Positions 168-60,642 are shown, counted from the first letter of the stretch. The stretch is DNA of 64,000 bases from a virus (IMGVR_UViG_3300022751_000016:32001-96000), one strand, 5' to 3'. A program made the numbers and translations. The notes: a model not told the origin generated them from the sequence alone.

Positions 168-1615
168 ATGAAAGAAATAAGTCTAGAAACAGTTAGAAAA
201 GCTAATCAAAAGATGATTGATAATGGTAAGATTGAAAAATACGATAAAGTTAAATCTTTAGTTGATATTCAGGAAGAATATATTAAATTTCTAGAACGTG
301 AAATTGGAAGTGTTTCAAGTATAGCTTCTACACATGGATGGATTTGTAATAAAGAAATTTTTGACGAGGGTTGTAAGTTAAGAGAAAAAATAAAAGAATT
401 AAACAGATGAATACGAATTTATATTATTTAATAGATTCTGATGAGAATTTAACGGATGCAGAAAAGAGAGAAATATATTTTGAAAATCTCCAAATTCTTG
501 AAGAGTTGAGAGAACTAGATGAAAATTAAAGAAGATAAGGTAATTATTAAACAGTTTAAATGCGGTTCTAGTGATTTTTGGGTAAATGACGCTCACTATA
601 ATTTAAACGCCTCAGAAGAGCTTATTTGGAGTGCTGGTGAATCAGATAAGCCTGAACTTAGAGAAGCACTTCTAAACTTCATTAAAAGAAATAAGAAGAA
701 ACACTCACCTAGACCGAATAACATCTTCGAAGTCGAGGAAAAGATTTACAGCACAGTAAATTACGGTAAGTTTAAAGGTTTAAGTACACAAATGATAGTT
801 GCTGAGGATAAACGCTACGCTAAATGGATTTATCAAAATTCTGCTGATAAAAAAGTTAAAGAAGAATTAAAAGAATTGTTAAAAATAAAGTAATCATGAA
901 AGAAAATATAAAATTTTACTTAACACAATATAAATTCGGCAGAAAATTATATGGAGGAACTTATTATTTAATTTATAATTGGCTTCCTATGAGTATATTT
1001 TGGTCTGACAGATTGATTACGAGTTGTGGAGGAAGAGCATTAGAAACAGAAGTTTATGAGCAGAAGTAATCTTCATAAGGATAAGGGTAAATTCAATAAC
1101 GGCTTACTAGAAGAAATACCTACAAAACTACTAAACTTTTTCACAAGACATAATAATGATTGGGGTGAATTTAGAAAAGCTAAGAAAGATTTACAAAATA
1201 AAATCGCGGAAAAAGAAATGAACAAAGAAGTAGAAACAGTTTTAACAGATAAAAAACTAATAGAGCTTTACAATCTAGGCTGGTTGGATTATATGGACGG
1301 TAAACTAGACATAAGCATGGCTTTAGTAAAACCATATTACATAGGAGCTAATCACGCTGAATTAGGAGACTTTCCAGAAGGATTTGATAGTTTTACAGAT
1401 GAGGAAATTTTAAGGATGGTTAAATGATAAATTTTAAACTTTTGCCGCAAGAAGAAATTAAAAGAGTAAAATATTTAGAGAAAATAAAATCAAAATACGG
1501 TTCTTACGGATTAATAACTTATTCATTCAAAGATACAGGAATAGGATGTGTAGTTAAAATTAAAAGTTCACATATTAAGAAGTGGAAAGACATTACAGAT
1601 TATGGGAGCTGGTAA
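168..1615 (+). other. Run of small hypothetical phage CDSs (168-410, 519-893, 1056-1427, 1424-1615, plus short ORFs below the track cut-off)
   Basis: Tightly packed + strand ORFs with overlapping stop/start codons. 519-893 ends in a YGKFKG..Y..W segment resembling the small DUF3820/ExoX C-terminal-like domain. Confidence 0.7.
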
Positions 1616-1624
1616 AAAAATAAA

Positions 1625-1656
1625 TTTGTTAGTTAAATATAAAAGTTGTATCTTTA
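1625..1656 (+). promoter_or_regulatory. Bacteroidota-type promoter
   Basis: TTTG (1625-1628), 20-nt spacer, TATCTTTA (1649-1656), a variant of -7 TAnnTTTG. Confidence 0.6.
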
Positions 1657-1660
1657 CGGC

Positions 1661-4970: not shown

Positions 4971-4983
4971 ATTATTATATTTG
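4952..4983 (+). promoter_or_regulatory. Bacteroidota-type promoter driving the non-coding region
   Basis: TTTG (4952-4955), N20, TATATTTG (4976-4983); perfect consensus. Confidence 0.75.
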
Positions 4984-4986
4984 CAT

Positions 4987-5340
4987 AAGAAAGATAGGTA
5001 AAAACACTTTTCGGCTTTTTGGTAATACGTGTGCTGTATTCTGGTAACAGGATTAAACCTTATAACAACGTGTGATGTGGATGAGTGACCACAAATCTTT
5101 CTTTTTTAACTTTTTCGCGCAAAAATAACAGTCATTTGAACTTAACACTAGGATAATGACAAGCGATTGGACAAAGTTAAGTGTCACGAATTGCCCTGTA
5201 ACAGCTAAATGTTGCCAGTTAGAGTAGGTCTGAGACTATTATGTGAAGCTCTAACATTTTTTATCGGTATCATCCCCTGTGATAGTATCTAAGGGCTAGT
5301 AGGAGTTGCATGTTAATACCGAGTGTGTAATCCTACTTAT
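4987..5340 (+). ncRNA. Putative structured ncRNA(s): three stem-closed modules with a kissing loop and a pseudoknot
   Basis: ORF-free, starts just after the promoter. Stems include AAGAAAGAT/ATCTTTCTT, GTCATT/AATGAC, GTTAGAG/CTCTAAC, TCGGTAT/ATACCGA and AGTAGGA/TCCTACT; each module ends at a U-rich tract. Confidence 0.55.
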
Positions 5341-5365
5341 TTTTATAAAATGTAATATCAAATAG

Positions 5366-6148: not shown

Positions 6149-6161
6149 AGTTGTATATTTG
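6130..6161 (+). promoter_or_regulatory. Bacteroidota-type promoter
   Basis: TTTG-N20-TATATTTG. Confidence 0.7.
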
Positions 6162-6180
6162 TAGAAGATAAATAAGACGT

Positions 6181-6916
6181 ATGAAGAGAATCAGATTGAG
6201 TTTGACAGGAGTTGGGGAGGTTTTAAAAGAATCCGCGGAAAAGAAATTAGAAAAAGAAAGTTCAATTCCTAGATGTGATTCAGGACATACAAGAGAATTC
6301 TACGAAGACTTAAATATTCCAGAAAATAAAATTCCAAAAGAACTTATAGAAAGAGAGAAAAATCAAGATGTAGAGTTAGAAGACGATGATTTTGAAATGG
6401 TAACTTCTGACATTATAGTTTATGAAGACCAAATAAAGTTTATGGTTACAGATGATGAATTTACAACTATATTTTTAAATGACGGACTTAATTTAACAGT
6501 GTTAGAAACATCAGAAGAAATCGATTACTATATTGATTTTATGGAAAGGACATGGTTTGATAAATTAAAAGACTCTATTTCCTTCTTTATTCGCCGAATA
6601 AAAAATAAATTAACAAATAAAAATGGAAAACAAAATTAAGAGATTTTTAGAATTAAGTAAAGAGTTTACTGTAAAATCACATGAAGTATATGAAGGATTT
6701 GAAGAGACTTACGGAAATATAACAATAAATGGCGGAATTTGTTACACTAGTGTAGGATGTACTACAACAAATGGATATCAGACTCCAACAAAACTAGAAC
6801 AGTTTACAAAATCTCAACAAGAGAAGATTGAAAAAGCGCAAAGATACGAAGAATACTTAAAGTTGCAATCTGATTTATTAGAGTATTACACAGCAAAAGA
6901 AAAATTAAACAATTAA
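6181..6916 (+). other. Two hypothetical CDSs (6181-6639, 6623-6916)
   Basis: Overlapping ORFs downstream of a promoter. Confidence 0.7.
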
Positions 6917-11200: not shown

Positions 11201-11900
11201 AATTTGGATTGCATTAGCTATTTGCGTAATGTTTGTGTATTTTTTAAGAACTTGCTCAAATAATAGCTTGCAAAGAACGGTGGGAAAGAATGAAGTACTA
11301 AAAGAAGCTGTTGAAAAAGTAAAAGACGGTACAGAAGTTAATGAGCTTAAACGGTTGCGAGAAAGAGATTCTATTATTAAGGAAAACTCGGCTAAAGAAA
11401 AGCAAATAAAACAGTTGAGGGATAAGATATCTGAGAGTGATTTTAAAATTGCAGACTTAAAAGTGCAAATAAGCAAAGATAAGCTTAAGATTAAGGATAT
11501 GAATTTATCTAGAATTGCAGATACTCTTAACTCTTTTTATGGTGGAAAAAACGCTATAGCAAATCAATCAGATATTTCAATTAAATCAGTTCTGCCTAAT
11601 CAAATAGTGGAAACTTATGTTGAAAATGAATTTAACAAGAATGTTGTCGCAGAAAAAGATAAACAGATAGTTGTTTTTGACAGTATTGTAGGAGCTAAAG
11701 ATAAGATTATTTACAGTAAAAGTATTCTCTTAGTTTCGGCGGAAAAAAGCGTAGAAGAACATAAAGAAGTGATTAAAGTACAAGAAGAATTTAGTCAAGG
11801 TATTGTAAAAGAAAATAGGAAAATTAAGACTAAGAGTGTTTTCAGTCAAATACTGGCAGTGGGAGTTGGAGCAATTGCAGGATTTTTAATAGCAAAGTAG
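11181..11900 (+). CDS. Membrane-anchored coiled-coil protein, spanin-like
   Basis: N-terminal hydrophobic segment ending LRTC (possible lipobox), long coiled coil, C-terminal hydrophobic helix. Confidence 0.45.
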   Translation: MKMKQHKIWIALAICVMFVYFLRTCSNNSLQRTVGKNEVLKEAVEKVKDGTEVNELKRLRERDSIIKENSAKEKQIKQLRDKISESDFKIADLKVQISKDKLKIKDMNLSRIADTLNSFYGGKNAIANQSDISIKSVLPNQIVETYVENEFNKNVVAEKDKQIVVFDSIVGAKDKIIYSKSILLVSAEKSVEEHKEVIKVQEEFSQGIVKENRKIKTKSVFSQILAVGVGAIAGFLIAK

Positions 11901-12004: not shown

Positions 12005-14032
12005 ATGTTAGTACGATTAGAAAGTGTCAAAAATTCCGAGCAGGTTTTAGTAATTGACGAAATAGGTAGATTTTTAGGTGAAATTAATGAAGTTGAATTC
12101 TTTTTAGATTGTATATTAGATGATGAGGACATTTTAGAAGAGGATGATTATGTTTATTATAAAGTTGATAAGGAATGTTTAAATAAATTGTTATAATGGA
12201 AAAAGAATTTATACCATATGAAGAGGCATTAGCTTTAAAAGAATTAGGATTTGATGAACCTTGTTTTGGATTTTACTTCCCAAATACTACATTAATTCAA
12301 ATACATACAACAGGTTTTCCTAATGATAAAAAAGATTGTGTTCTAGCACCAACATTTTTTCAAACCTTTAGGTGGTTTAGAGAGAAGTATAGTTTAGATG
12401 GGTGGGTTGTGCCTTATCATTCATTAAAAGGTAAAAAATACTCTTATATAATTGAAGGTTCGGATTTTTACTTAGAGTACGACACTGAAGAATTAGACTT
12501 TGATACTTACGAAGAAGCAGAATTAGAATGTCTTAAAAAATTAATAGAAATCGCCAAAAAAGACGATAATTAAAAATATCGCGTTAAAAAACGATAGAAT
12601 GAAAAAGTTATGATAAGGTATATTTATAATAAAGAAAAACAAACAGTTGAACTTTTATCAGGAGGTTCTTTTGAAGAATTAGAAGATTTGATTAATAAGT
12701 TTAAAGACTGTTCTTTTATTATTTCGCGCGAAAAAGCTGAGAATAAAGGTGTATTAGTCGGAGGAGTCTATAAAACAGTAATATCAGGGATAGAACATAA
12801 TTAGCGTAGTATGACAACAGAGAGATTTAAAGAACTAGAAGACAGAAATAAAGATAATCCAATGCAATTATGTTTTGAAATCTTTAACGAAGAGAAATCC
12901 AGAATACCATTATCTCAGTTTGAACAGATGTTTACAGCTTGGTTACATTTATTTAAAGGCGGAGATATATATTCAGCAATAGAGTATTTTAAAAATAATA
13001 AAGTGAAATGATACAGTACTTAATAGAAGGTGACAAATACATTTTACACTATCAAGAATTGAAAGAGAAGTATATATTGCATATCGCGATGTCAGATGAA
13101 GAGTTTATGAAAAATTTACCATCAGCTCTACATTTAGCGTGTGTTATCTGTTTCTTGAAAGAGATTCCAACATATATTTGTTTGAGTGATAAGGGCGTTA
13201 TACATGAGTTAACACACTTAATTCAACACGGAACGGATGAGTTAATAGTTTTGAAAGATATTAGAAAAGTGTTTAAACAACAATTGAAATTAGCATGAAA
13301 ATAACAAAAACCAAAGAGATAATTACAGAAGAAGTTCAAATTAAGACAGGAACTTACTACTTCGAAGATGAAAATATAATAGCTTACAAATTTGTACTGC
13401 ATGAGCCAGAAGAAGATTATTCAGAATATGAGTTGGAAACCCTTCAAAGTTATGCTAATTTAAATAGTATTAAAATAAAAGAAGACGGAGCTTGGGATGA
13501 GAATGATTTACCTTATGTATTTAAACAATTTATTTTAGGTATTTCTGGAAAAGAGATTTTAAAAGAAGATTACTATAAGGAAAGACAACAGATATTAGAA
13601 AAGTTATGCAAGTAGGAGATAAAACAACAATGTATTTTGATTGCTTCGGAGTTACAAGTGAAGAAGATGTAATTGTAAGGAGTGTGGATAGAAATGGAAT
13701 AACTCTTCAAGACCAATATTTCAATGGAGAAGAGAATGAAGAATATTATTTGTTTTCTGTTGACACTGGAAAATGTTTAAACGAACCTAGGGCTGGATTC
13801 GGCGGGAAAAGAAGATTAAAAAAGTGAGATGAAAATAACAGAAAGAAGAATAGTGATTCAGAATTGGTATGAAACTGAATTATCTAAAACAGGTTGGGAC
13901 ACTTACGGCTGGATGTTTAAAGATGACTATCAAGGACTTCTTTTAGGTTGGAAAATTGTAGAAATACTTCAATCTGATAAATATGGAAATCTTGTTACAG
14001 GTATCGCCGAAAAAGAAACTAAGATAAAATGA
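12005..14032 (+). other. Array of small hypothetical CDSs (12005-12196, 12610-12804, 12811-13011, 13008-13298, 13295-13615, 13606-13827, 13829-14032)
   Basis: Coupled + strand ORFs. Confidence 0.7.
12196..12573 (+). CDS. Hypothetical protein, paralog of 33965-34351
   Basis: Shared FIPY.EALALKELGFDEPC, FR.FREKY and TYEEAEL.CL.KLI blocks. Confidence 0.8.
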   Translation: MEKEFIPYEEALALKELGFDEPCFGFYFPNTTLIQIHTTGFPNDKKDCVLAPTFFQTFRWFREKYSLDGWVVPYHSLKGKKYSYIIEGSDFYLEYDTEELDFDTYEEAELECLKKLIEIAKKDDN

Positions 14033-18929: not shown

Positions 18930-19596
18930 TGAACGTCCTCGGGTGTGAGATGTCCATATATCAAGCCCCTATCAAAGTTACCCCTCTTTTTGTCCCATAC
19001 CCGCCTATTGTTTCAATCTTCTAAAATCTATTCTTAGAGGGCTTGAAAATGTTTTTCACTTTTGAGTTTTATTTTAGTTCTTTGTATAGTTGCTTATGTT
19101 GTTATCTAAGTATTTTTAACCGTTTCTTTTCTCTTTTAATTTCTTTTTGCGGGCGAATTGTGTAGAGTATTTAAATATATTCTCTATATAATATGATTGC
19201 GTGCGCACGTGATACATAAAAAATAATTAATATCCTATTTTTATTTTAATTATTTTGGTTATACATTTGTAAGGTCGAAAGAGGATAACAATCCAATAGA
19301 CAAACAAAGTTCTTATACACTTTCTTTTTTAATATGCAAGTAAAATTTAATTTATTTTTGCATTGAAGTAAAAAAGTTTATAGTATCTTTACACTATCGG
19401 AAACGAAGCAAGTTAATTGACATATTGAATAATAGTTTAATCCAGCCTAATAAAGGATTATAGCTTTTAACGCAGCTATTACAGCAAAGTCCCATTTAGT
19501 AATGGTTTGGTGCAACTCCATAAATACTAAATCCCTTGCAAATTTATGTTTGTAGCATCGAAGCAACAAGGGAACTAATTTAAAAACTTATTTATT
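18930..19596. other. Long non-coding region; candidate genome end / terminal-repeat start with early promoters
   Basis: Abrupt compositional shift to C/T-rich then T-rich sequence; palindrome CGTGCGCACG (19200-19209); promoter boxes TACATTTG (19262-19269) and TATCTTTA (19384-19391); followed by an array of small genes. Confidence 0.4.
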
Positions 19597-21819: not shown

Positions 21820-22395
21820 ACAATAAATAAAAAGTTATGGTACTAAGTAACGAGAATATAACAATAGGTACACTTACAGTCTTAAAACATTTAGGTATTA
21901 CAACCTATGAACAGTTAAAAGAGTTTAAGCCACCAAAGATAAACGAAATTATTTATTATAATCCTTTGGCGAGGGTTGAAAGAAGATATACAAAAAGAGT
22001 AGATAACGAAATAAAGGAACTTTTAAATTTATAATATTATGGAAGTATTTAATGTATTGGTTAAAGGGGTTGAGGTTAAAGATATAAACGATTGTAAAGC
22101 CTTTTTAAGTGAAGATAGTGCCACTAAATGGATAGAAAAAGTTTGTAAGTTCCAAAAATGGACTATTAAAAGCCGTTTGGGTTGGAATGATGATAATACT
22201 TTGGATGATAGACGAGTTGAGGATATGAAAGGAAATAGTTATTATTTTGTAATATATCGGCAGATTTTAGAATAATTTCGCCGAAAAAAGAGTATCAATA
22301 AGAAAAAATAAGTTAATAAACAAATAAAATATAAAGAAATTTAATTATATCTTTACAGTATCAAACAACAAGCGAAAGCGCAAAACTTTATCATT

Positions 22396-22821: not shown

Positions 22822-23798
22822 TTTCGGCAAAAAAGTATTAAAACTATAAAGCGACAAGCGCATGGGAACATTAACAGTTTATAGAGAATGGAACAGTTCT
22901 TACAATCAAACAACGATTTTAAGAGACGAAAACAACAAGGTAAAGGCTATCATAACCAGCAGCATAAAACAGCCTAAAATGAACCAAAAGATAGTAGTAA
23001 TCAACCGTAAAGAGTTTCTATTGAATTGGGAACTTGTGGCGGGAAAACAAATAAAACAGAAAGAAAATGAACACAGCAAAAGAAGTGATAGCGCAAAACA
23101 ACAAGATTATAGCAAAGTTTATGGGTGCAAAAGAAGGTAAGGGAGTAGGTAAAAGAAAAGCCTTAACAGGTGTACCAATTCCTTTATATCTCGATGAGAA
23201 AATATTAACTGATAAAAGCACTTGTTTTATTGACGAACTAAGGTATCATTCTGATTGGAATTGGTTAATGGAAGTAGTAGAGAAGATAGAGAGTCTAAAC
23301 ACGTCTTTTAGTATAGATGGTAATAAATGCTACTGCATAAACGATAGCTTCTGTAATGCTCAAAAAGAACCTACAAAAATAGAATCAGTTTATAAAGTGT
23401 GCATAGCCTTTATTAATTGGTACAACGAACCCCAACTAAAAATCGGCAAAAGAAAATTTAACAAAGATAACTAACAACAGATAAAAAGAAACAGTTATGA
23501 TACAAGTAAATAAAAATAAAGGTTTTCATCTAAAATTTAATAATGGATTAACAATATCTGTACAAATAGGTAACAGTAACTATTGTAATAACAGAAATAA
23601 CTACGATGTTGACGAAATGAAACAACCTATTACGACCTGCTTAAATGCTGAAATAGCTATATGGGACGAAAGTAACAAATGGTTTACGTTTGAAGGCGAC
23701 CAAGTAAAAGGGTGGGTTGAAGCCGATGAGGTAGGGATATGGATTGACAAGGTAAGACGAGCAAAAAATATTAAATCTATAAAGAGAATTAAAAGAAA

Positions 23799-23830: not shown

Positions 23831-26800
23831 CCCTCAATTCAATGTTTAACGAAATAAAAGCCTTCTAAATGGGATTTATAGCAAAGAAAATAGATACAAA
23901 TAACATCTATTACAGCAAAGGAGCTAACAAAATAGCTGATTTAATAGGTTGTCACTACTCAACTATAACAAAACACTTTCAAAATAGCAGTTCAGATAAG
24001 GTTATTAAGGGGTATATAGTGAGTAAAACAATAGATTTAACCAATAAAGATAGAGGAAGTAGCACAAAATCAATATTTAACGCTATAAATAGCTTCTAAT
24101 TCGCGCAAAAAGAAATTAAAAACAGTAAAATACTATGGAAAATAACCTAAAACATAACGATATAGTAGATATATCAATAATAATATGTGATAAACTAATA
24201 GACTTAGGATTAATAGATATTGAAGACGATGATACACAAGATGAAATCACATATATACTAGCGGAATCATTAAAGGTAAAACTAGAATACTAAACAAACC
24301 CAATGAGAATGGGACTTCATTAGACTAAAAATATAATTAGCCTACACTAAACTAATTTTTAGACAAGCCTAAAAAGGTGAGGACAACCCACCCCAAACAA
24401 ATTCCACTAACAAAAAACAATTAAAAACACCCCAATATAAGCAAAAATTACCTTATCACTTGACTATGGTAGTGTTGAATATGGTTATTTTGTATGGTTG
24501 GGCTTAAAAGAAAACGTTATGAAAACTAAAGAAGAAATATTAAAAGATAGGTATGAGATAAACGGGTTTGTATTTAGCGCAGAAACGCCAAAAGAAACAG
24601 CCAATAAACTTATCGAGCTTATTAGTTCAAAAGAAAGAGTTATTTTAGATTATGGAAATATTGAGACTAAAGTATCTTGGAATGAAATTTATGATATAAC
24701 TGGTTATGTTAGTTATTCTAAAGGATTTTATGATTTAAAGTATCCTATATTGGTTTATAATAAACGTTCTTATGGTGGAGGTAGTATATTAACACATTGT
24801 ATTTTGTCTATTAAGAGTAGTAGAGGTAAGAGAGTTTTATTTAGTGTTTAACCGTTTTTTCTATTTCTTTTCGCGGCGAATCTATTAAACAATAATAAAA
24901 CCCACTACAATTAAATTTAAGAGTATTAATAAGGCTTTTAAGCCATTAAAAATAAAATTATGACAACTATATCCATTCCAAAAGAAAAAATGCTTGAATT
25001 GATTAAAAACGATACTTGTGGTTTTTATGATTATACTAATTATAATAGCCTCGACATAGATATTGTTTTTGACAGCACTACAACATTAAAAGAGTATGAT
25101 GGGGCAAGCAGATTAAACTTAACTTTTAAAGACTTATCTTCTTTACTGTTTGATAGAGTTGTTAAGGTTAGTGATGAGTTATTAATCACTGTTTCTTAAT
25201 TCTTTTTCCCGCCGACCTTTATTACATTAACAAATAACCAACACAATCAAATTTAAGCTTAGTTTTAACCCTTTTAAACAACTACTATGATAACAAATAT
25301 ATCTAAGGTTCAAAATGAACTTAACGCCCTTAAAGAGCAAGTAATTGGCATATACAAACATTCTACTATTGGGGTGTTTGAATTAGTACTAAGTATTGAC
25401 AAGCAAACAGAAACTATTGAAACTTGTTTTATTAGCCAATTTGGAGCAATACAAAGAGGTTTTTCAATTCCTTATCAACAAGGTAAGTTATTTTTATTCC
25501 CCGATAATCGTAATATGAATGATATGTTAAACAGTCCTTTTGAATGGGATGCTTTTATGAAACAGTTTTAATCTGTTTTTAACTCTTTTTTCGCGGATTT
25601 AATAAATAACAAACAAAAATAATAGTCATGGAAGTATCAAAGAAAAAATCATTTAAAATACAGTTATTTAAAGGTTGCCCATTATATGGTATTCTTAAAT
25701 TTGATAAAGAGACTAAAAGTTACTTAAAGTATTATGATGAGAAAGGAGAAATAACAGTTGATTTAGATAACTATAATAGTTTAATTATCAATTCTATTAT
25801 TAAACAAGCAGAGATTATTTGTCAAATGAAATATGGTATATTATGGAGCTATTAAGAGATTTTTTATTATGGTTGTTCTTATTTATGTATTTTCATTTAG
25901 TCAGGTTTTTTGAATTACGTGAAAACACAAATGTGATAAATTTGAAAGACTACTTTAAGTATGGCGGTGGGATTGTGTATATGATTATTACAACTCAAAT
26001 TATAATACTTCTATGTTTTTGGGTTTTAAAGTTCTTTTCTTAATCTCTTTTTCGCCCGAAATATTAACAATAAAATTAAAAAATATGGATTATTTTATTA
26101 CAGCTTGCATTGCATTTCTTATTGGACTATTTTTAAATACACGATTATTTAAAACTAAAAAACCTTTAAAAACATACGACCTAAAGAAAAAATATAAATT
26201 TGCTAAGAAGTTTGATTATTTTGTAATTAAAGAATATAATAACAAATTTGAGTTAGTATATTATAATAAACCTTACAGCGAAGATTTTGCAGAATAAATA
26301 CAAATGATATGGAACACTTATTAAATGCTTTACACGCTCTTACGTTGCTAGAAATGGAGAGAGATTTAACAAATGAAGAGACAAGATTTTATCTCTATTG
26401 TTACAATACATTAACTGAAAATAATATTAACATTCCTTTTGGAGTAGAAGTTTAACTGTTATGGAAATAATCACAAGTAAATTAGGCGAACAAGGTATTT
26501 TTGTATCAGGAAATAAGTATAACTATATAGAATGGGCTGAGTACAAAGGAAAAACCTTTAGGGTGGGTACAAAAGTAGATTGGTGTGACCCCGATGATAA
26601 CAATAGACGATATAGAGGTAAAATAAGGTGGCTTATCTTACTTGGTAATGGTAATGTAGAAATAGATTTTAATGATAAATTAGGTAGGGTTAGTTTAAAA
26701 GATTTAGACTTATGAAAATTAATCACGTCATGAAAAAACTACACTACAGAATAGAAATAAGAGATTGTAACGGCAAACCTTATAAAACAGATAAAGGAAG

Positions 26801-33095: not shown

Positions 33096-33142
33096 ATACT
33101 GTTTTTTCGCGAAATTAGTTAGGAAAATTAAAATTTTCTTTT

Positions 33143-37388: not shown

Positions 37389-37842
37389 AATATTAATATT
37401 AAGTGGGATATCAAATTCAGGTAAGAGTAGCTATGCTTCAAAATTAGTGCAACAACATCCACAAGCCTTTGTAATAGTGAACAGAGATAAATTAAGAGAG
37501 GCTCACTATGGTTATACAGAAGAAACAGTTAAATACTATTACACGCATGTAGACTTTAATTATATGGAGTCTCAAATCACTGCTGTACAAGATAAACTTA
37601 TTGATTTTTGGCTAAAAAGAGGTAAAGATGTAATTATTGATAATACAAATCTTAAAAAATCGTACATAGAAGAGTTTAAAAAATTTGGAGTACTAACAGA
37701 AGTAAAATTCTTTGACATAACTCTAAAAGAAGCTTTAACTAGAAATATGTCAAGAAATAGGAAGGTTGATGAAGAAGTTATTGAAAGACAATATAGTCAA
37801 TATATAAATTTAAGAAAAAATTTCGCGGAAATAGAAAAATAA
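37381..37842 (+). CDS. Polynucleotide 5'-kinase (T4 Pnkp kinase domain-like)
   Basis: LSGISNSGKSSYA, VNRDKLR, VIIDNTNL, RNMSR..KV.EEVI.RQY. Confidence 0.85.
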   Translation: MAKILILSGISNSGKSSYASKLVQQHPQAFVIVNRDKLREAHYGYTEETVKYYYTHVDFNYMESQITAVQDKLIDFWLKRGKDVIIDNTNLKKSYIEEFKKFGVLTEVKFFDITLKEALTRNMSRNRKVDEEVIERQYSQYINLRKNFAEIEK

Positions 37843-37869
37843 TCCCTACATTTACAAAAAATATAAGAT

Positions 37870-38637
37870 ATGATATTAGAAAGACCAATAATTTTCTTTG
37901 ATATTGAGTCAACAGGAGTTGAAACAGAGACTGCAAGGATAGTAGAATTAGCTTGTATAAAATACAATCCTGACGGCACAAAAGAAGAGAAAACAATTAA
38001 AGTAAATCCAACTATTCCAATTCCACTTGAAGCAAGTGAGGTTCATGGAATCACAGACGAAGAAGTAAAAGATTTACCTACTTTTAAACAGTATGCTCAA
38101 GCTATTAGAAATTGGTTTGAGGGTTCTGATTTAGCAGGGTTTAATTCAAATAATTATGATGTCCCTCTTCTTTCTGCGGAATTTGAGAGAGCAGGGCTAG
38201 AGGGTATTAATTGGAACCCTACTTTATTTGATGTATTAACTCTTTATAGGGACTTGTTTCCCAATACATTGTCAGCCGTATATGAAAGACTTACAGGAGA
38301 AGAGTTAGAAGGAGCACACGGAGCTGTAGCGGATATATTAGCTACTAAACAGATTGCAGATATAATTTTTCCTTTATTAGTTGAGAAGTCAGAAACTCCA
38401 ATTGAAACGCCTAGAGATGTAGATGAGTATTTGCAGGGTGACAAGAAAAGATTTGACTTAAGTGGTAAGATGTATATAGATGTTGATGGAATTGTAAAAT
38501 GGAATTTTTCTAAGAATAAGGATAAAGCAGTATTAGCTGATGCGGGATTTGTAAATTGGTTTATGCAGCAAGGATTTCCGCAAGAAAGTAAGAATAAGAT
38601 AAAAGAATTACAAAATAATAATAAAAAAGAATCGTAG
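37870..38637 (+). CDS. DEDDh 3'-5' exonuclease (DNA pol III epsilon-like)
   Basis: FFDIESTG, VHGITD, GFN...YDVPLL, AHGAVADI. Confidence 0.92.
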   Translation: MILERPIIFFDIESTGVETETARIVELACIKYNPDGTKEEKTIKVNPTIPIPLEASEVHGITDEEVKDLPTFKQYAQAIRNWFEGSDLAGFNSNNYDVPLLSAEFERAGLEGINWNPTLFDVLTLYRDLFPNTLSAVYERLTGEELEGAHGAVADILATKQIADIIFPLLVEKSETPIETPRDVDEYLQGDKKRFDLSGKMYIDVDGIVKWNFSKNKDKAVLADAGFVNWFMQQGFPQESKNKIKELQNNNKKES

Positions 38638-39585: not shown

Positions 39586-40299
39586 ATGTCAAAATCAAAA
39601 ATAAACTTACCCTCAAAATTAGATAAAAGCAATTGGTTCTATGAAGGAAATGAAGAGTTAATAAATCCACATTTAAATAAATTTTACATATCTTATTCCA
39701 CTGTTTCATCTTGGGAAGACTATAGAACAGATTTCATTAAACAGAAGTTAGCAGGGATTAAATTACCAGATTCTATTTATGGCTCGTTCGGGACATGGGT
39801 GGGGACTAGCTTAGAGCACGGGCAAATTCAAAGTAATAATTATGGATTCACTGGAGGAGAGAATATCAGCTTAATTGAACGTAAAGAAAATGCTCAATAT
39901 GAAAGAATGATTCTTATTGACATGGGAGAATGGTGTATCATAGGATTTATTGACGTATTTGAAGAAATCGCACCAAAAGTTGTAAATTGCAAGGATTTGA
40001 AGACAGGAGGAGCAGGGAAAGAGTCAGGCTATACTAAGAAAGAATATATTCAATTAGTTTTATATGCATATGCCTTAGTGTTAGAAGGATACAGTATAAA
40101 TGAAATTGGAGTTTGGTTTTGTAGAAGAACAGGAAGTCATATTAAACCACCCTTACACTTATCTACAGAACAGTTTTACATACCTTTAGAATACAATGAT
40201 GAAAGAGTTAAATACGCAATAGATAAAGTAACTAGAGTGGTTGGAGAAATTAGTGAGTTTTTCACTTGTTTTGAGAAATATTTCGCGGAAAAGAAATAA
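39586..40299 (+). CDS. PD-(D/E)XK nuclease (RecB/Cas4-like exonuclease)
   Basis: ISYSTV, FGT.V, GFIDV...DLKTG, QL.LYA. Confidence 0.8.
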   Translation: MSKSKINLPSKLDKSNWFYEGNEELINPHLNKFYISYSTVSSWEDYRTDFIKQKLAGIKLPDSIYGSFGTWVGTSLEHGQIQSNNYGFTGGENISLIERKENAQYERMILIDMGEWCIIGFIDVFEEIAPKVVNCKDLKTGGAGKESGYTKKEYIQLVLYAYALVLEGYSINEIGVWFCRRTGSHIKPPLHLSTEQFYIPLEYNDERVKYAIDKVTRVVGEISEFFTCFEKYFAEKK

Positions 40300-40434
40300 A
40301 AACAGAAAAAATGAAAGGAATTAAAATAACATACACAACAGATAGAGACTCTTGGACAGATGATGATAAGATTAAAACCTAAGATAGATTATCAAGAGGA
40401 AACACGTAACTGGCGGTGGTTTAATGTAGTTACT

Positions 40435-48378: not shown

Positions 48379-49724
48379 AATCAATACATTTTGTTACACC
48401 AACTTTACTTTCTCATTTGGATTTATTTTCTATGGGAGGTTCTGAAAAAGCTGAAGATACTAGTAAAATAGGAAGATACAATTCAGGACTATGTTATTCT
48501 ATGGCATTATCTTTAAGGAATAATATAGACATGTCTGTACGAGTGTTTGATACAGAATATGAGTCGGAAGGTCACGATAGAGCAAGGGAAACTTTATACA
48601 CTATTGACACCTACACTGAAATTTGTGAACAAACAGATAAAGAAAAAGAATTAATACAACTTAGTAAATCAGTTTCAAAACAATCTTTTTTCTCAGTTCA
48701 CTGTGATGATTACGGTGGTGGAGATTTCCCAGAAGAGATTATTCCAACAGGATTCTCAGTTAAAATGGGAATAGGATGGGATTTGTGGATGGTCTTGAGA
48801 GAAATCTTCTCTAATATGATTGATGAGAATGGAAATTACTATGAAGACACTTGTCCTGAAATTAAGTACGGAACAGTTTTTACATTAAGATTTGAAGATA
48901 GTTCAGAATTTGCAGAAATATGGAACAATCGTCATTTGTATATTAATGAAAAGCCACCTTTATACATCATTTCCGATACAGTTGAAGTATTAGAAAATGA
49001 AGAGGGATTTTTAAGAATTTACAAGCAAAACATATTAGTTTATAAAGATGAGAAAGTTCCAAGTAAGTTTGCGTATAATCTTAAATTCGGCGAAATAGAC
49101 GAAAAAAGAATTTTATCTAATATTTGGAGTGTTTCCAGTGATATTGTATATGCCATAAAAAATACAAAAAATGAAAATTACTTAAGAGAGATTATAACTG
49201 TTGATTTTGAAGATAAATTTCTTTCAGATAAAAGTGTCTATGGAACAGCTTCTGATTTAGCTCATAGCATAGCTTGTGAAATCTATAATAAATTCGGAGA
49301 AGTTAAAACATATCCTTGGTTGCTGAATTCTATTAAGGAAAGAAGTGATTGTGGAATTGGTGAGAAAAGAATCCAAAGCATAGGAGATAGTGTTTATAGT
49401 TATTCAAATACAGTAACTGTAACTTCTATTCCAGAGCCTTTTGCCGAACCATCTATTGAAGTTGAGGGAGAAGTATTTATAGACCCTTTTTCCGCGGAAA
49501 TAAAAAAACATTATAACTTTGAATTAGATGTAGAAGTTAGAAAAGCTAAATTACGTGGGAATAAGGTTATAGCAGATAAGTTTGAAAAGTGTCTGATTGT
49601 AGACGAAAGTTTTGATGTAGAAAAATACTTTGGAGAGTTCATAATTCAATATTTAGATTTAACTGTTGAAGGAAATGTAATTAAGAATTTAGGAGAGTAT
49701 ATTTGTAATTTATTGAAGAAATGA
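48375..49724 (+). CDS. GHKL/HATPase-like ATPase with permuted motif order
   Basis: G-box-like SEK....KIGRYNSGL precedes N-box-like W..WMVLREIFSNMIDE. Confidence 0.55.
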   Translation: MKSIHFVTPTLLSHLDLFSMGGSEKAEDTSKIGRYNSGLCYSMALSLRNNIDMSVRVFDTEYESEGHDRARETLYTIDTYTEICEQTDKEKELIQLSKSVSKQSFFSVHCDDYGGGDFPEEIIPTGFSVKMGIGWDLWMVLREIFSNMIDENGNYYEDTCPEIKYGTVFTLRFEDSSEFAEIWNNRHLYINEKPPLYIISDTVEVLENEEGFLRIYKQNILVYKDEKVPSKFAYNLKFGEIDEKRILSNIWSVSSDIVYAIKNTKNENYLREIITVDFEDKFLSDKSVYGTASDLAHSIACEIYNKFGEVKTYPWLLNSIKERSDCGIGEKRIQSIGDSVYSYSNTVTVTSIPEPFAEPSIEVEGEVFIDPFSAEIKKHYNFELDVEVRKAKLRGNKVIADKFEKCLIVDESFDVEKYFGEFIIQYLDLTVEGNVIKNLGEYICNLLKK

Positions 49725-50710: not shown

Positions 50711-51220
50711 TTGGTAATAGATAGAGTATGGGCAATGCCAAGTAAGAATACATTTGATATAAAACCTATCAAAGAGTTAATAGAGAGGTATAATGCAGAC
50801 ATAAATAAACTAAGTGTAGACCCCTTTGCCAATAAAAATAGAATAGCAAACGTTACAAATGATTTAGACCCTCAATATGATACCACTTACAATATAGATG
50901 CTATAGATTTCTTAAAATTGTTTAAAGATAGTTCGGTCGATTTAATTCTTTTCGACCCGCCATATTCTCCAAGACAAGTTTCAGAGTCTTACAAGAAATT
51001 AGGAATGTCTGTTAATATGCAAACTACACAATCTAGTTTTTGGGGAAATCTTAAAAAAGAAGTTGGTAGAGTAACTAAGAAAGATGGAGTTGTCATATCA
51101 TTTGGTTGGAATTCAGGCGGAATGGGTAAATCAAACGGTTTTGAAATTATTGAAATATTATTAGTACCTCACGGCGGAAACCACAATGATACTATAGTAA
51201 CAGTAGAAAGAAAATTATAA
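50711..51220 (+). CDS. Small DNA adenine/N4-cytosine methyltransferase
   Basis: VDPFA, DA.DFL, FDPPYS catalytic motif. Confidence 0.8.
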   Translation: MVIDRVWAMPSKNTFDIKPIKELIERYNADINKLSVDPFANKNRIANVTNDLDPQYDTTYNIDAIDFLKLFKDSSVDLILFDPPYSPRQVSESYKKLGMSVNMQTTQSSFWGNLKKEVGRVTKKDGVVISFGWNSGGMGKSNGFEIIEILLVPHGGNHNDTIVTVERKL

Positions 51221-51618: not shown

Positions 51619-52206
51619 ATGGAGAACATTAACTTTGAGCTATATAAAAAGTATCAGTTAGAAGCATCTGATTTATTCTATCTTTTCGCCGCAAAACAAG
51701 TTAAAAAAGAGGTATTGGAGCATATACCACAAGATGTTTTAAAGCGTTTAGAGATATCATATCTAATAAAAAGTATAAAGGGTTCAGCAAAAGAAAATCC
51801 TCTCCATAAACTAAGAATAACAGATAAAGGAAAAAAACTACTAGTTGAGCCAATTGGAGGTGAAGATGAAGACAAGCTTTTTATGTGGTTAGCTAATTAC
51901 TACACGGAAAGAGGTAAGGAGATAGGAAATCCCAATAGAGTGAAGAAGCTTTTATTATGGTTCAAACAAGAAACAGGTATAGAGAAGAATGCGTTAGTAA
52001 AACTTTTTATGCATTTTTTAAATGATGATTATGTTAATGAAGAGTCTCGAGTATTGGAGTTTACACTGTTTTATCCTAAGAAATTTACAACAGACAAAGG
52101 AAAATCTATAGCTTATGAAGCAAAACCTGATATTTTTGACTCTTGGCTCTACAAACACTACCTTAAATATAAAGAGGAATTAGACCCCATATTAGAAATA
52201 GAATAA
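51619..52206 (+). CDS. Hypothetical replication-associated protein (wHTH-like)
   Basis: LRITDKGKKLL wing-like motif; directly upstream of the helicase. Confidence 0.35.
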   Translation: MENINFELYKKYQLEASDLFYLFAAKQVKKEVLEHIPQDVLKRLEISYLIKSIKGSAKENPLHKLRITDKGKKLLVEPIGGEDEDKLFMWLANYYTERGKEIGNPNRVKKLLLWFKQETGIEKNALVKLFMHFLNDDYVNEESRVLEFTLFYPKKFTTDKGKSIAYEAKPDIFDSWLYKHYLKYKEELDPILEIE

Positions 52207-56400: not shown

Positions 56401-59400
56401 GGAGTCTCAAATACAAATTAAATTTGGAGATGTGAAAAATCTTTGGGACGATGAGCATAATTTCTGGTCTCTAACAGATAGAAGAAGTGAGCAATTGATT
56501 TACTTAGAAGCTAAGAGGGTAGAATTAGAGGTGAGTAAGCTATTGTCTTTATTTCCGAAAGATAAAATTAAGATAGAATCTACAAAAGAATTATCATCAA
56601 CAGAAAAAATTCTCAAAGATAAAAAAGAAAGTAGCCATAACAGAGATAAATCTAAGTTAGATGAATTAGGTTTGGACGGAATAGTGTATCAAATGAGTGA
56701 GTACGACCTTAATCAAAACTCAAATGACAGAGATAAGAAAAGGATTAATTGCGGAGAACTAAAATATTTTTACGATTATGATAAAAGGCTCAAATGTGGA
56801 AGAGTTTATCATCAGTTGAATAATAGATGGTATGTTTTAGCAGGTGGAGAGGTAGATTATGTTTCATCTTTTGATTTGTTTGACTATAGTAGTGAACCGC
56901 GCCGAAAACAATTAAAAACAGAAGAAAAAATAAATCGCTTGGAATCAGAGTTAAGAAAATATGAATCTAAGAAAAATTATCTACGATGCATGTCTATAAA
57001 TAAGCAAATAGATAAATTAAAATCAAATGAAAAACTTTACTATGTTTGGAGCTTAAAATGGGGTAAATGGTGGGGAGCAAATAATTCAGGATATACTTCA
57101 GATAAAAGAATGGCAGGAGTATATTTAGAGAGTAATATTTTAAGAAATCAGTCTTACTATAATGATGGAGTAAGTACAAAAGCAATTTTAGCATGACAAT
57201 AATTATTATTTACGCGATTATAGCATTAACTTGCATACTATATTTTAAGAAATATATTTTCACAGATAGTGGATTTTTCTTAAGTTTCATTACAGGACTT
57301 TTCTTCCCTGCGGCATTCTTTGTATCAATAGTTTTAATTTCAATTCATTTTTTAATAAGTTTAGTATATGAAAGATAGTAAATTAATATTTGACAAAAAA
57401 GGAGAATTTGCAATAAATTTTTCTTGGGAAAATGGTGATGATGCACATTGGATTGATTTTTCAGGTGTGGAGGTTTGTTCAGATTATATGGATGAGAATA
57501 ATCCTGAATTCATCACTTTTGATACAGGTTATGGTATATCAAGTGATTGTTTTGAATTTAAAGATGTGAAAGAAGAAGATTTATTTTTTACAGGTTTTAT
57601 AAAATGGGATGGTTGTATGGAAATACATGATTTAAACTACCATTTCTGTCATAACAATGATATTTTAAAAAGAGTTACTGATTTAATATATAAGTCGGGT
57701 AAAGAAATAATGATAAATAAAGCTGATTTTTATGAAAGATAATATTATTTTATGTTTGTGGATAGCTTATACTATCGGGTTTGGTTTATTTGGAGTGTAT
57801 ATTGACCAAAAGGCTGATGCTGTAGAAATGTTCGGTTTAAGCTGTCTTTTTGGTCAAATCTTATTGGGAATATATTTACTTTTAATTCTATTATTGAATA
57901 CAATGGTGGGTAAAATAAATTATAGATTTAAAATACCTCCACCTAAAAGGTTTAAAAACAAGGTAACACCTATTTACAAATTAAATGTTTATGAAGGAAC
58001 TAAAAACTGTTTCTCTATTAGTAAATATCAATTAGAGTGGGTAGATATCGACTTTTTAAATTATAGATTTTCATTAATTCCGTTTAGTGCTTTATTCCAG
58101 CGTTACAAATACGTTCCTGTAGACTTCTTCTATGAATTCGAAATGGATTTAGATGGTGTGACAGATATTGGTTTATTGTGGGAAAGTGAATACAGTAAAG
58201 AGTTGGAACTTAAATCGGCGGCACAAAAAGAAAAAGACAGAGTAAATAAACTTAATAAAGTGTTTTTAGAGAATTATGAACAATAACAACTTAGAGGTTT
58301 TTATAAAAGAATGGTTTCCTAAAACAGAAGAATGGAATAATATATCCAAGTTCATTTTAGAATCAGGGATACAAATAACAGATGATGTGAATCCTAAATG
58401 GTTAACAGGGTATACTAATATTGGTAAAAGTAGTAAGCCACATCATAAAGATGAATATACACGCTACATGGAAGAAGGCATGTTTATGCTTCACGATGTA
58501 GTTCATCAAATATTTACTTTAGATACCGAATGTTCAGAAGAGCAGTACGTTAAAAGACAAATTTATGGAGAATTATTCACTTTTTATTTAACAGAGTACG
58601 TTATTCCTAGCAGTTATGGTTTAGGAGATAAAAGAAAAGAATATATTGTTTATAATAGAGACTGTTATAATTTATTGGATTGGGTAGTATCAGAAAAACC
58701 TCGTGTTAAATACAATATTATAGATTGGATGTGGGAAGTTTTTATAGAAGATACAGATTTAAAATATATTAATAGGTTAGAAGAAGTTTATCTAGATAAA
58801 TATCGAAAAATGTTTAAAGAAGACTTGGAGAACTCAAGAAAAAATTATAAATTTGTACCTAATGGAATAAAGAATTATTGTATGGTTGGAGAGTCAAGTC
58901 AAAATCATATAGATTTCTTCTCTGCTGTTAAAAATGGCGCGATAAAAAATATAAAAAGAGATTTTAATTTAGAACTTCCTAATGAGTGGATTTAAATTAA
59001 AGATAAAAATAAAACAGAATGGAAATAACAGAGCAATATTCATTTAATGAAGGAGAATACACAGATTACTCTCCTTACGAATGTGTCCAGTATATGATTG
59101 AACAAGATATGCCTAAAGAACATATTGTAGGGTGTAAACTAGAAATTTTAAAACTGGAACAATGTATACCATTAGGTAAAATTAAAGAAATTGTCTATGA
59201 TAATTATGATGACCGTTTTGATGAGCAAGACTATCTGAGTGATAAACTAGAAAACATCTGGAAACAGTTTGAAGAGATAAAAATGTTCTATGCCTCAGAT
59301 GAATATTACACAGTTACTGAGGAAGATTATAATGAAGTGATTAAAGATTTGTAGGTTATGGGATTTAACAATGATAAAGCATGTCAACAAATATCTGACC

Positions 59401-60642
59401 ACATAATATCAAAATATAATAAAATTGAAGTAAAAGCAGGAAAGTGTAAATGGAATTTCAGATGCTCATTTAACAGTGTTCACTACGCCAAGAAAAATAA
59501 ACATAAGAAAATAGCTATGTGTGTTTACATGGACGCAGATTATCCTATCATACACTTTGTAAATTACAAGAATAAAAAGTTTGTAGATAATACTTTAGGA
59601 GAATGGTCTAGCAGATATGATTACTATTTTATTCGATGGATAGAACAAGAAGACATGTGGGATGTAAATAACATTTTTCGGGCTTTTAGAAGAGAACTTA
59701 GAAATAATTTGAGTTGGTGGGTAAAATTAACGAGTGATTATGATGCGTAAAAAATGAGAATTCTAAAAATAACAACACTACCTCCAGCTAAAGAAGCATG
59801 GATAGATCGAGATATGATAATGCTACATGCCTGTTTTCAACTGTTAGCTGATTTTGTAGAGAAAGAAGATGGACTGAACCACTGTAATTATGAAGCTCAT
59901 AAAAAGGATATTGATGAATGTAAGGCTTTATATGATTGGTGGAAAAATGTTTATAGGATAGATATGGATTATACAATCCCTCAAGAGTATTTAGAGAGGC
60001 TGGTAAAAATCAGGTATTTTTTATGGACTTAATATTTTGGCGAAAAAATAAATAACAGAAGAATGAAATTAATAGGCTACATAGATTACAGAGAGATATT
60101 TGAAATAGTTAAGAAAAATCACCTCAAAGAGTACCCAACAGTAGAAGAGTATATTGAAAATATGGAGGGAGTGTACCACGTAGAGGATAAGAATGCTAGA
60201 GAGATGTATGAAGCTTTCAAAATTGATTTCTCAGAGTACGACACACCAAGTTCAACAGATGACTTTGATGATTCTGTTATATTAGACTATCTTAAAAAAG
60301 ACCGTTTATTTTTAGAGTTTTCTATTGGCGGAAATGACTCTAATGAAAGTGGAGATAATTATTGGGGGTATGGGCATCAATTCACTATTAGTTTAGATGA
60401 TGAGTTATTTATTGACTATAATTTTGAGAATTATTCATAAAATCGCGCGAAAAAAGATGAAAAAACAGAAATATATTCATTACAATAACAAAAAATCCTA
60501 CCTAGTCACAGATAAGTGTTTGATACAAGTGGACGATGAATGGAAGGAAGCTGTTTTATATAAGGAGGAGTTTGGCAGTCAATTATTTTGCCGAGAAGAA
60601 AAGGAGTTTTTAGAAAAATTTAAATTGGCTGAACATGAATAA
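53487..60642 (+). other. Array of about 20 hypothetical CDSs; the last (60457-60642) is DUF1653-like
   Basis: Coupled + strand ORFs. 60457 ORF has Y.HY....Y.V....W..AVLY......FCRE..EF..KF. Confidence 0.7.

Follow-up and report, generated by a model that had tools for sequence, protein, structure and literature searches.

The phage DNA analysed here carries a short mirror-symmetric DNA signal, made up of a T-run, 4-7 G/C letters and an A-run, which is spaced about every 1.5-2 kb through the early genes, both between and inside them. With a probability of about 0.38, the element is a multi-copy, operator-like putative binding site for a candidate DNA-binding regulator. The window, meaning the whole stretch analysed, comprises 64,000 nt of one strand, read 5' to 3' (IMGVR_UViG_3300022751_000016:32001-96000). 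The source genome is that of an uncultured, 142-kb phage of flavobacterial type. Nine related IMG/VR contigs with 49-86% protein identity were used for comparison, together with Cellulophaga phage phi4:1.

The strict pattern was defined as T{2,}[CG]{4,8}A{2,}, with variants carrying a core of at least 5 letters or T3/A3 flanks, and was counted against 300 dinucleotide shuffles and 300 synonymous-codon shuffles of the window. It occurs 41 times, against 11.4±3.5 in the dinucleotide shuffles and 24.6±3.4 in the synonymous-codon shuffles, so that the comparison with a codon-preserving background, suggested in the initial annotation, yields an excess. The form with the longer core occurs 31 times (3.3±1.8 in dinucleotide and 13.7 in synonymous-codon shuffles) and the T3/A3-flanked form 20 times (1.8±1.3 and 9.8), and all three counts lie above every one of the 300 shuffles of both kinds. 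In a separate word test of the window, TTSSSSSAA was found 12 times against 2.6±1.6 expected, and the opposite-polarity A..S..T pattern was not enriched (AASSSSSTT, 3 against 2.6). The enrichment is common to 9 of the 9 related contigs and is absent from phi4:1, despite its matching composition and layout. At all 26 of the 26 coordinates first quoted for the motif, a CG-rich core is preceded by T and followed by an A-run; the left flank, described at the time as TT(T), is no more than a single T or 'AT' in 6 of the 26.

True sites cluster at a total length of 13-15 bp, with a T-run equal in length to the A-run. The core varies in length from 4 to 7, and each of its positions holds C or G at about 50:50. 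Palindromic cores are about twice as frequent as chance, and as a class the motif is self-complementary. In full, the element is a dyad of about 45 bp, namely TCTGTTTTTAAWTCTTTTT, then 4-7 G/C letters, then AAAAAGAWTTAAAAACAGA, so that the G/C core is flanked by a T-rich arm on the left and by an A-rich arm with a terminal CAG on the right. Most copies are reduced to the centre alone, or to the centre with a single arm. An arm-plus-core alignment of about 30 nt (A2) holds both forward and reversed copies. Model R1 matched the window 21 times at E<=0.1 (14 on the + strand and 7 on the - strand) and the relatives (197 kb) 73 times, at least 6 of their sites being matched on both strands around one core; in phi4:1 (146 kb) there was 1 match, without the core. 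Copies in window coordinates are given below, with R1 scores in bits.

5096..5124, - strand: element in the ORF-free gap 4980-5360, outside the training set (15.3 bits)
6232..6259, + strand: extended element in ORF 6181-6639, core CCGCGG, arm rightward (20.8 bits); example 6231 of the initial annotation
11734..11748, unstranded: central motif only, mid-ORF
12722..12735, unstranded: central motif only, perfect palindrome, in ORF 12610-12804
13798..13824, + strand: element with its core 22 nt before the ATG at 13829; 13-mer repeated at 17626 and 43444
19128..19155, - strand: leftward-arm intergenic element, core GCGGGCG
22276..22289, unstranded: central motif, intergenic, immediately past the stop codon at 22275
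23036..23065, + strand: element with its core 23 nt before the ATG at 23067
24099..24126, + strand: element beginning with the stop codon at 24099; its core precedes the ATG at 24135 by 28 nt
24854..24880, - strand: leftward-arm element past the stop codon at 24851; first described as the clear case 24870
25188..25214, - strand: leftward-arm element, core CCCGCCG, before and across the stop codon at 25199
25568..25597, - strand: best extended copy, core CGCGG, arm leftward (21.4 bits, E 5.7e-5), immediately past the stop codon at 25571; repeat family D3
26031..26059, - strand: leftward-arm element past the stop codon at 26043 (17.0 bits); family D2
28298..28310, unstranded: central motif whose core precedes the ATG at 28332 by 25 nt
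31087..31098, unstranded: central motif whose core precedes the ATG at 31114 by 18 nt
33102..33114, unstranded: central motif (palindrome) just past the tyrosine recombinase gene
35440..35468, + strand: element in the RNA ligase gene, codons ATT CGC GGA AAA GAA; not kept in L015 or L018
37821..37831, unstranded: central motif whose core precedes the ATG at 37870 by 41 nt
38575..38583, unstranded: in-ORF site 59 nt before the exonuclease gene; rare Pro codon CCG kept in 3 of 3 close genomes
40281..40310, + strand: element over the closing codons of gene 39586-40299, a 23-aa ORF following after 23 nt; kept in L004 with a different core, missing in L005
40480..40508, + strand: weak copy TTCGGAAAA in a host-type promoter spacer, 11 nt before a TAnnTTTG box; three promoters of relatives have identical geometry
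49487..49500, unstranded: perfect 12-bp palindrome in a 449-aa gene that is conserved; 4 of 5 orthologs (54-63% aa identity) retain it via the rare codons TCC/GCC GCG
51684..51713, + strand: in-ORF element matched by R1, outside the training set; aligned G/C run kept in 4 relatives, cores differing
60036..60065, + strand: intergenic element whose core precedes the ATG at 60063 by 20 nt
60444..60472, + strand: element about 10 nt before the ATG at 60458

In the region of 37821..37831, homology with the relatives begins at 37869.

The arm occurs in forward and reverse orientation at about 60:40, and about 40% of the arm-bearing copies point away from genes. No hairpin, of RNA or of DNA, is predicted: among 20 strong copies, most folding z-scores are above zero, so the arms are alike yet non-complementary, which is the pattern of a protein site and not of a hairpin. 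Intrinsic (Rho-independent) terminators were rejected, as the T-run precedes the core and folding is no better than in shuffles; a terminator scan gave results at chance. N4-type hairpin promoters (5-7-bp stem, 3-nt loop) were also rejected, with at most 3-5 weak T:A pairs to be formed. The A..S..T polarity, which could pair equally well, is not enriched.

The sequence on either side of the core is skewed. T minus A lies between +0.05 and +0.09 over the 20 nt upstream and between -0.22 and -0.25 over the 40 nt downstream, the background being -0.10, and the flip from T to A spans about ±40 nt around the core. The flanking strand skew of the initial annotation, synonymous positions included, is real on average and holds at third codon positions and at mid-gene sites. 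It had been worded as G+T upstream and A+C downstream; the change from T-rich to A-rich stands, but C is depleted downstream rather than enriched (0.078 against 0.117 in the background), and upstream G is 0.149 against 0.182. The A/C-rich tracts at 24870 and 25205, offered as examples of the skew, are a separate two-copy box (family D5).

At orthologous positions, 45% of pairs keep the G/C run of a site, whereas other G/C runs are kept in 21%; in pairs with differing local amino acids the figures are 39% and 20%. At orthologous sites, the position and the G/C richness are kept through rare codons, which are conserved while adjacent synonymous positions vary, and the core sequence changes. Rare codons are indeed imposed at the in-ORF sites (TCC GCG, CCG, GCC), as had been noticed at the outset. 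Judged by these sequence comparisons, the T-run/GC-core/A-run element is real and under selection in the phage and its relatives. It is very improbable that it is a by-product, without function, of composition, codon usage, duplicated intergenic cassettes and gene boundaries, where T-rich gene ends meet A-rich leaders. Such an origin would suit the leftward-arm copies between 19 and 28 kb, some of which belong to repeat families, the A-rich sequence that is general ahead of starts, and the weak form of the same flank skew found around other G/C runs. However, it is already largely refuted by the shuffle, polarity, phi4:1 and conservation controls: the counts beat all shuffles of both kinds, the mirror polarity stays at chance, phi4:1 lacks the pattern at equal composition and layout, the skew holds at mid-gene sites, and rare codons and positions are conserved in orthologs of 50-60% identity.

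The shape of the footprint raises the matter of DNA-metabolic initiation, which we regard as a rather doubtful explanation. A G/C island in 30%-GC DNA would provide a stable 4-7-nt primer-template hybrid or a nicking point, and outward synthesis or single-strand exposure would write the mirror T-rich/A-rich footprint by mutation or selection; because the site is a dyad, it could be used on both strands. The degenerate core, in which G/C content and length alone matter, speaks for this, as do the orientation independence of the element, the symmetric ±40 nt flip that includes synonymous sites, and the loss of C from the 3' flank of each strand. A Prim-Pol or Toprim_2 primase was not detected in the phage genome, though a DnaB-like helicase and Pol A are encoded, which also fits. 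It is likewise conceivable, if rather doubtful, that the phage signal is read by its physical properties and not by its sequence, as a G/C clamp between a T-tract and an A-tract; if true, the clamp would mark repeated opening, priming or nicking of both strands, proceeding outward and leaving a mirror footprint over the genes.

The distribution of the sites argues against initiation. Counting cores of at least 5, there are 0.44 sites/kb in the early/replication block of the + strand (genome 29-105 kb) and 0.10/kb among the structural genes. This 4-5-fold contrast, which is repeated in relative G1, is at odds with a structural half that likewise needs replication and packaging. The spacing of strong sites is Poisson-like (CV 1.0), the 8-kb stretch at 52-60 kb of the window is free of strict sites, and there is a sharp preference for promoter spacers and for the 20-30 nt before start codons. 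Several broad claims of the initial annotation are not confirmed by these figures. The motif is far from evenly spread over the genome, strict sites come at about 1 per 1.6 kb rather than every few hundred bp, and no regular lattice is formed. Its notion of dispersed, selected DNA-level sites with a symmetric footprint survives apart from the lattice, given the self-complementary class, the two-orientation arm, the lack of a hairpin and the kept positions. A process acting over the whole genome, such as packaging, condensation or general lagging-strand priming, is not borne out by sites that are scarce in the structural half and tied to gene starts and promoters.

Programmed nicks of the T5 type, which had also been proposed, are not supported either. 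The nick words of T5-like, tf-like and phiKMV-like phages are fixed, asymmetric, confined to one strand and present at 4-14 per genome; the T5 word is R/GCGCRGG, and the localised nick sites are without known function (PMC3517423). The elements resemble them as short, scattered words containing G/C, and the T5 word is similar to some cores. However, the core here is degenerate and centred on a dyad, RGCGCRGG has 0 matches in the window, and in place of a one-strand word there is a self-complementary class with arms on both strands. Known nick sites, as fixed one-strand words, thereby count against DNA-metabolic initiation as well.

With respect to genes, 34% of the sites are intergenic, against 12% of random positions, and 46% of the strong sites are mid-gene, which agrees with the first description of the motif as lying both between and inside ORFs. 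The core ends 20-30 nt upstream of a start codon at 14% of the sites, against 2%. Host-type Bacteroidota promoters follow the pattern TTG-N19-TAnnTTTG (-33 and -7 boxes). A few sites fall in the spacers of such promoters and several copies lie in the leaders downstream of them; in four promoters the core is exactly 11 nt before the -7 box, and no more than 3-4 sites stand at that distance. Most sites lack a fixed relation to -7 boxes, and identity with the host-type promoter was rejected.

These distances bring in a phage-specific middle-type promoter, used by the host RNA polymerase with a phage factor, which we consider improbable. The T-run and G/C core would stand in for the -33 element, a TA-box (TAAAAAC or TAnnTTTG) would lie 8-11 nt downstream of the core, transcription would start near CAGAAG, and reversed copies would yield antisense RNAs against early genes. 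Many copies have 8-11 nt between core and TA-box (exactly 11 nt in four host-type promoters), CAGAAG comes after both the host -7 box and the element arm, and the 20-30 nt peak from core to ATG matches the 19-28 nt from the host -7 box to the ATG. The stretches at 24-40 kb and 44-53 kb are rich in sites and lack host-type promoters. T4 middle promoters, with a MotA box at -30 and a -10 element, are fixed in sequence and oriented to genes, and their density range covers that of the element, which counts for such a promoter; alike are the box near a -10-type element, the many early copies and the frequent location inside the preceding gene. The box-to--10 distance in T4 is 11-13 bp. Here most copies lack a canonical -7 box and about 40% are reversed. 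In addition, a G/C-degenerate element is unlike any sigma-read box, forward copies would leave leaders of only about 2-10 nt, no sigma factor was detected among the phage proteins, nor a T7-type polymerase in a search that likewise missed its control, and the promoters of the late block are built by another logic, AACCAATTTT with a -7 box.

The same peak before the ATG would suit an element acting in the mRNA, which is quite improbable. In a host group without Shine-Dalgarno pairing, the succession of U-rich, G/C and A-rich RNA could make up a leader free of structure, or an intercistronic signal, some 25 nt ahead of the start. Ribosomes (S1) might land there, translation might be controlled there by an operator, or an RNase might cut there. 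The mostly positive z-scores, meaning less structure than in shuffles, are in keeping with this, as are the copies in leaders downstream of host-type promoters and the A-rich -14 to -3 that is a general property of the start codons of this phage. Yet on the transcribed strand the arm is found either way round and some sites are two-armed, the T-run is as long as the A-run although the start codon borders the A-rich side alone, nearly half of the sites are mid-gene and remote from starts, and promoter spacers, which precede the transcript, hold some of the copies.

The operator-like reading is favoured by the enrichment in one polarity, the dyad form, the two-orientation arms without a hairpin, the restriction to the early block, the association with promoters and starts, the presence throughout the relatives and the kept positions with changing cores taken together. 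From these features of the sequence we infer protein binding, and control of transcription by that binding. The motif forms the centre of a dispersed, orientation-independent, dyad-symmetric element of double-stranded DNA. The putative factor, which is probably phage-encoded, would bind as a dimer or a larger oligomer. Recognition would rest on the geometry of the T-tract and the A-tract, on the G/C-rich centre and on a few bases of the arm at intervals of about one helical turn. The factor may influence how the early/middle gene block is expressed: initiation would be controlled by the sites in promoter spacers or just upstream of start codons, and those at gene ends and inside genes would be roadblocks or extra loading sites. 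Against an operator, a core without base preference and of varying length (4-7 letters) is uncommon among sites of regulators that recognise sequence, the flip extends further to either side (about 40 nt) than a 14-bp operator requires, and the share of mid-gene sites is high. Among the phage proteins there were no matches to the sigma-70 r2/r4, ParB, KorB, E2F or HU families, and HTH matches were confined to one GIY-YIG homing endonuclease. The top Pfam/PHROG families of the 144 window proteins include no regulators, and most small proteins are without any family.

Multi-copy operators are known from other systems. In the Cluster A mycobacteriophages (L5, Bxb1), the immunity repressor binds stoperators, a 13-bp word that is fixed and asymmetric; dozens are dispersed over both genome arms, mostly at gene boundaries and in a single orientation relative to transcription, and true operators stand at promoters in addition. 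The elements resemble them in having many dispersed copies at gene boundaries and promoters, at 0.4-0.5/kb, but form a degenerate-core dyad in both orientations and mainly in one gene block, and the repressor is known there, whereas no regulator family was detected here. The KorB OB sites of IncP plasmids (TTTAGCSGCTAAA) and the Noc and ParB sites (NBS, parS) are 13-16-bp palindromes of fixed sequence, present in many copies at varied distances from promoters, with proteins that act at a distance. The mode of action proposed above for the element follows that of stoperators and KorB OB sites; for stoperators, the proposed action is at initiation and as elongation blocks. Identity with KorB, Noc or ParB sites was tried and dropped: such sites depend on a protein of the ParB family, and PF02195 and PF08535 gave no match in the genome at E<=1, with the positive controls matched. 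The polarity is shared, with a T-rich left arm, a G/C centre and an A-rich right arm, but the core here varies in sequence and length. HIP1 of cyanobacteria and the USS/DUS uptake sequences are fixed words spread over whole bacterial chromosomes, USS having AT-rich flanks. Unlike them, the element has a degenerate core and is found in a phage genome, mostly in a single gene block; like them, it is present in high copy inside and between genes, and its orthologous positions are kept despite the codon cost.

The element, a run of T followed by a core of G/C bases and a run of A, is a real, selected and clade-specific DNA element, and it is neither genome-wide nor periodic. All 26 positions quoted by the initial annotation have a CG-rich core preceded by T and followed by a run of A, and the window contains 41 matches to the strict pattern T{2,}[CG]{4,8}A{2,}. 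This compares with 11.4±3.5 occurrences in dinucleotide shuffles and 24.6±3.4 in synonymous-codon shuffles, the latter leaving intergenic copies unchanged. With cores of at least 5 the count is 31 (against 3.3±1.8 and 13.7±2.0, respectively), and with flanks of T3+ and A3+ it is 20 (against 1.8±1.3 and 9.8±1.7). Each of the three counts lies above every one of the 300 dinucleotide and 300 synonymous-codon shuffles. The remaining flank polarities provide an internal control: cores of at least 5 are framed T..A 31 times, A..A 7 times, A..T 3 times and T..T 4 times, an excess of T..A that appears despite A being the commonest base. In a separate word test, TTSSSSSAA was found 12 times against 2.6±1.6 expected, and its mirror word AASSSSSTT 3 times against 2.6. 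An unbiased 6-mer scan of the early/replication block returned TCGCCG, TCGGCG, GCCGAA, CGCCGA, CGGCGG and TTCGGC as top words. The window covers bases 32001-96000 of an IMG/VR phage genome 142,450 bp long and is about 30% G+C, with an A- and G-rich coding strand and CpG depleted to an o/e of 0.68. Literature searches turned up no relevant description of such a motif in flavobacterial phages.

The phage belongs to a clade of large uncultured flavobacterial-type phages. Its closest relatives in GenBank are the Cellulophaga phages phi4:1 and phi17:2, with a DnaB identity of 40%, and a search of bacterial genomes for prophage relatives found none. The features needed here are the following:

Genome 29-105 kb, + strand: about 178 small genes (the + block)
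Structural block, - strand: large structural genes
Window 24897-24948 and 25233-25284: the two copies of a conserved A/C-rich box (…ACCNACNACAATNAAATTTAAG…)
Window 32292-33095: tyrosine recombinase, 267 aa (Phage_integrase, 4e-36, and an N-terminal SAM-like domain)
Window 48375-49724: 449-aa protein, conserved in at least six related contigs
Window 50735-51217: 161-aa ORF with weak matches to N6-adenine (D12-class) DNA methyltransferases
Window 52222-53343: DnaB-like helicase
Window 60732-62756: Pol A
L006:1450-2334 (a locus at genome ~128 kb, structural block), - strand: GIY-YIG homing endonuclease with two C-terminal HTH (NUMOD/IENR-like) repeats

Besides the helicase and Pol A, the + block encodes RecA/UvsX, a GroEL-like chaperonin, PhoH, RNA ligase and exonucleases, and additionally homing endonucleases and the tyrosine recombinase. 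The recombinase gene lies midway through the early block, in a phage that otherwise resembles the large lytic type, and further GIY-YIG, HNH and LAGLIDADG genes are present in the window. GATC is nearly missing from the + block, the GATC-containing 7- and 8-mers all being at near-zero expectation, and a DNA methyltransferase is listed by PHROGs among the window proteins.

The distribution of the element departs from the genome-wide lattice, with a copy every few hundred bp, that had been proposed for it. Cores of at least 5 number 33 in the 75.6 kb of the + block versus 7 in the 66.7 kb of the structural block, and in the relative G1 the two blocks differ in the same way. Strong sites lie 1.8 kb apart on average with a CV of 1.0, which rules out regular spacing, and the stretch from 52 to 60 kb of the window holds no strict site. 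About 100 sites are kept per genome. When 119 strong sites from nine loci were compared with random positions, 34% were intergenic (12% random), 68% lay within 200 nt upstream of a start (41% random), and 14% had the core end 20-30 nt ahead of the start codon (2% random), with 46% in mid-gene (63% random). Five consecutive small genes at 24.8-27.0 kb each have a leftward-arm copy after the stop codon, the arm being the longer flank of the best copies.

Enrichment recurs in 9 of 9 related contigs, at 49-86% protein identity; phi4:1, alike in composition and gene layout, shows none. At the end of the gene at 39586-40299, the window and the relative L004 both have a site with different cores, with a corresponding difference in the protein's C-terminal residues; the ortholog in the relative L005 has no site there. 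Of 5 orthologs of the 449-aa gene, 4 preserve the palindrome at 49487 through TCC or GCC plus GCG (4-10% of Ser or Ala codons), which bears out the earlier remark that copies inside genes impose rare codons, and the neighbouring synonymous positions vary. Of 38 orthologous site pairs, 45% retain the G/C run, versus 21% for 162 G/C runs taken as controls; at places with differing local amino acids the values are 39% versus 20%. Since a single site can enter comparisons with more than one relative, the pairs are not wholly independent of each other. The 449-aa protein has no sequence match in Pfam or PDB, and it contains an ExxxNxxDE-like stretch which, judged only by eye, resembles GHKL ATPases. 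Gene content is mosaic around the conserved genes, with homology breaks near the element at 37869, 40283 and 40310, and in L005 an insertion of about 1.1 kb (5164-6311) separates two genes that are direct neighbours in the window, at 39583.

Structurally, true sites have a total length of 13-15 bp, and short sites, 8-10 bp long, are background-like. In centre-aligned sites C and G are about equally common at each core position, so that G/C content alone is kept, and palindromic cores occur at about twice the chance frequency. In the best copies the longer arm lies beside the centre, and forward and reverse-complemented copies share a consensus of TTT, core and AAAAAGAAWTTAAAAACAGA. Searched with a sequence-only model built on this consensus, the window yields 21 copies at E<=0.1, of which 14 are on the + and 7 on the - strand; 197 kb of relatives yield 73, and the 146 kb of phi4:1 a single match without a core. 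Several sites of the relatives are matched on both strands about one core, giving a dyad of about 45 bp, one copy of which is at L014:7879-7923; the dyads TTTGCCGGCAAA are those of another phage genome. The exact long form is present in 19 IMG/VR contigs, with several copies only in contigs of this clade.

The arms are alike and not complementary. A hairpin on the core, in RNA or DNA, was considered and rejected, as neither the minimum free energy nor the count of enclosing pairs differs from that at random positions, and folding z-scores for 20 strong copies are mostly >0, with folds no stabler than shuffles. Pairing tests for kissing loops likewise gave a negative result for this motif. The A..S..T polarity, as pairable as T..S..A, is not enriched. 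Together, these properties point to a duplex-DNA signal and not a hairpin. The element matches no tRNA gene or known RNA family, and a role as an RNA leader element is very improbable, being contradicted by the two orientations and by copies within promoter spacers.

The flanks do show a real strand-skew flip, but from T to A rather than from G+T to A+C as initially described. Against a background value of -0.10, T minus A is about +0.09 immediately upstream and about -0.25 across some 40 nt downstream; the flip is still present at third codon positions and the skew is also seen around mid-gene sites. C is depleted downstream, not enriched, and a mirror-image C loss is visible around the element in the window. 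The A+C-rich impression at 24870 and 25205 arises from the two ACCNACNACAATNAAATTTAAG boxes, which lie about 30 nt downstream of two leftward-arm elements.

With about 100 copies kept, rare codons forced and synonymous sites biased 40 nt either side, a central process must be served. The most likely reading, at a probability of roughly 0.4, is a candidate operator-like binding site, as judged from sequence. The element would be a site for a dsDNA-binding factor acting on early/middle gene expression, which would jointly fit its self-complementary class, its arms in either orientation, the lack of predicted nucleic-acid structure, the early-block restriction, the association with promoters and gene starts, and the selected positions. 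The closest analogues of such a putative operator are multi-copy operators such as stoperators and KorB OB sites. An operator network would point to a global early-gene regulator hidden among the unannotated small proteins. Searches of the phage proteins for a sigma factor, ParB, KorB, an E2F-type winged helix and HU/IHF found none, and one for a T7-type RNA polymerase gave no match (its PF00940 search having no positive control). HTH_3 and sigma r4 matches at 128 kb were discarded as a regulator, being part of the GIY-YIG homing endonuclease with its NUMOD-like repeats.

The operator reading does not fit comfortably with a degenerate core of variable length, a flank bias of ±40 nt and no regulator found. 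The core and flank bias are better explained by a physical role, in which a G/C clamp would mark where strands are opened, primed or nicked outward. The lack of a recognisable primase (Prim-Pol and Toprim_2 have no domain match in the whole genome; Prim-Pol is annotated in phi4:1) slightly favours such a priming or nicking site, yet the restriction to one block and the start-codon link count against it, and we regard it as rather unlikely. If correct, the element would represent a new type of DNA initiation site, degenerate in sequence and relevant because the phage has no recognisable primase. Under either reading, the element offers a concrete probe sequence for experiments, and it is a simple diagnostic for clade recognition.

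Relative to host-type promoters (TTG-N19-TAnnTTTG), the element clusters at about -60, at -21 (within the spacer) and at +31 to +49. A fixed relation to the host -7 box is absent except for a small class, four promoters, with the core exactly 11 nt ahead of it. A phage-specific promoter would account for a core-to-ATG distance equal to that from -7 box to ATG, for a TA-box 8-11 nt past the core, and for CAGAAG being common to the arm and host-type promoters, but about 40% of copies are oriented the wrong way, and we regard this reading as unlikely. CAGAAG is also found after host-type -7 boxes and so may indicate where transcription starts. The + blocks of the clade contain AAACAG and AACAGA at about twice their frequency in phi4:1; AAACAG was dismissed as a general ribosome-binding signal, having no positional peak ahead of starts. 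Upstream of the late genes, in the - strand block outside the window, a host-type -7 box (TAnnTTTG) is preceded by a recurring AACCAATTTT box replacing the usual TTTG, an arrangement that may represent a separate late-promoter class.
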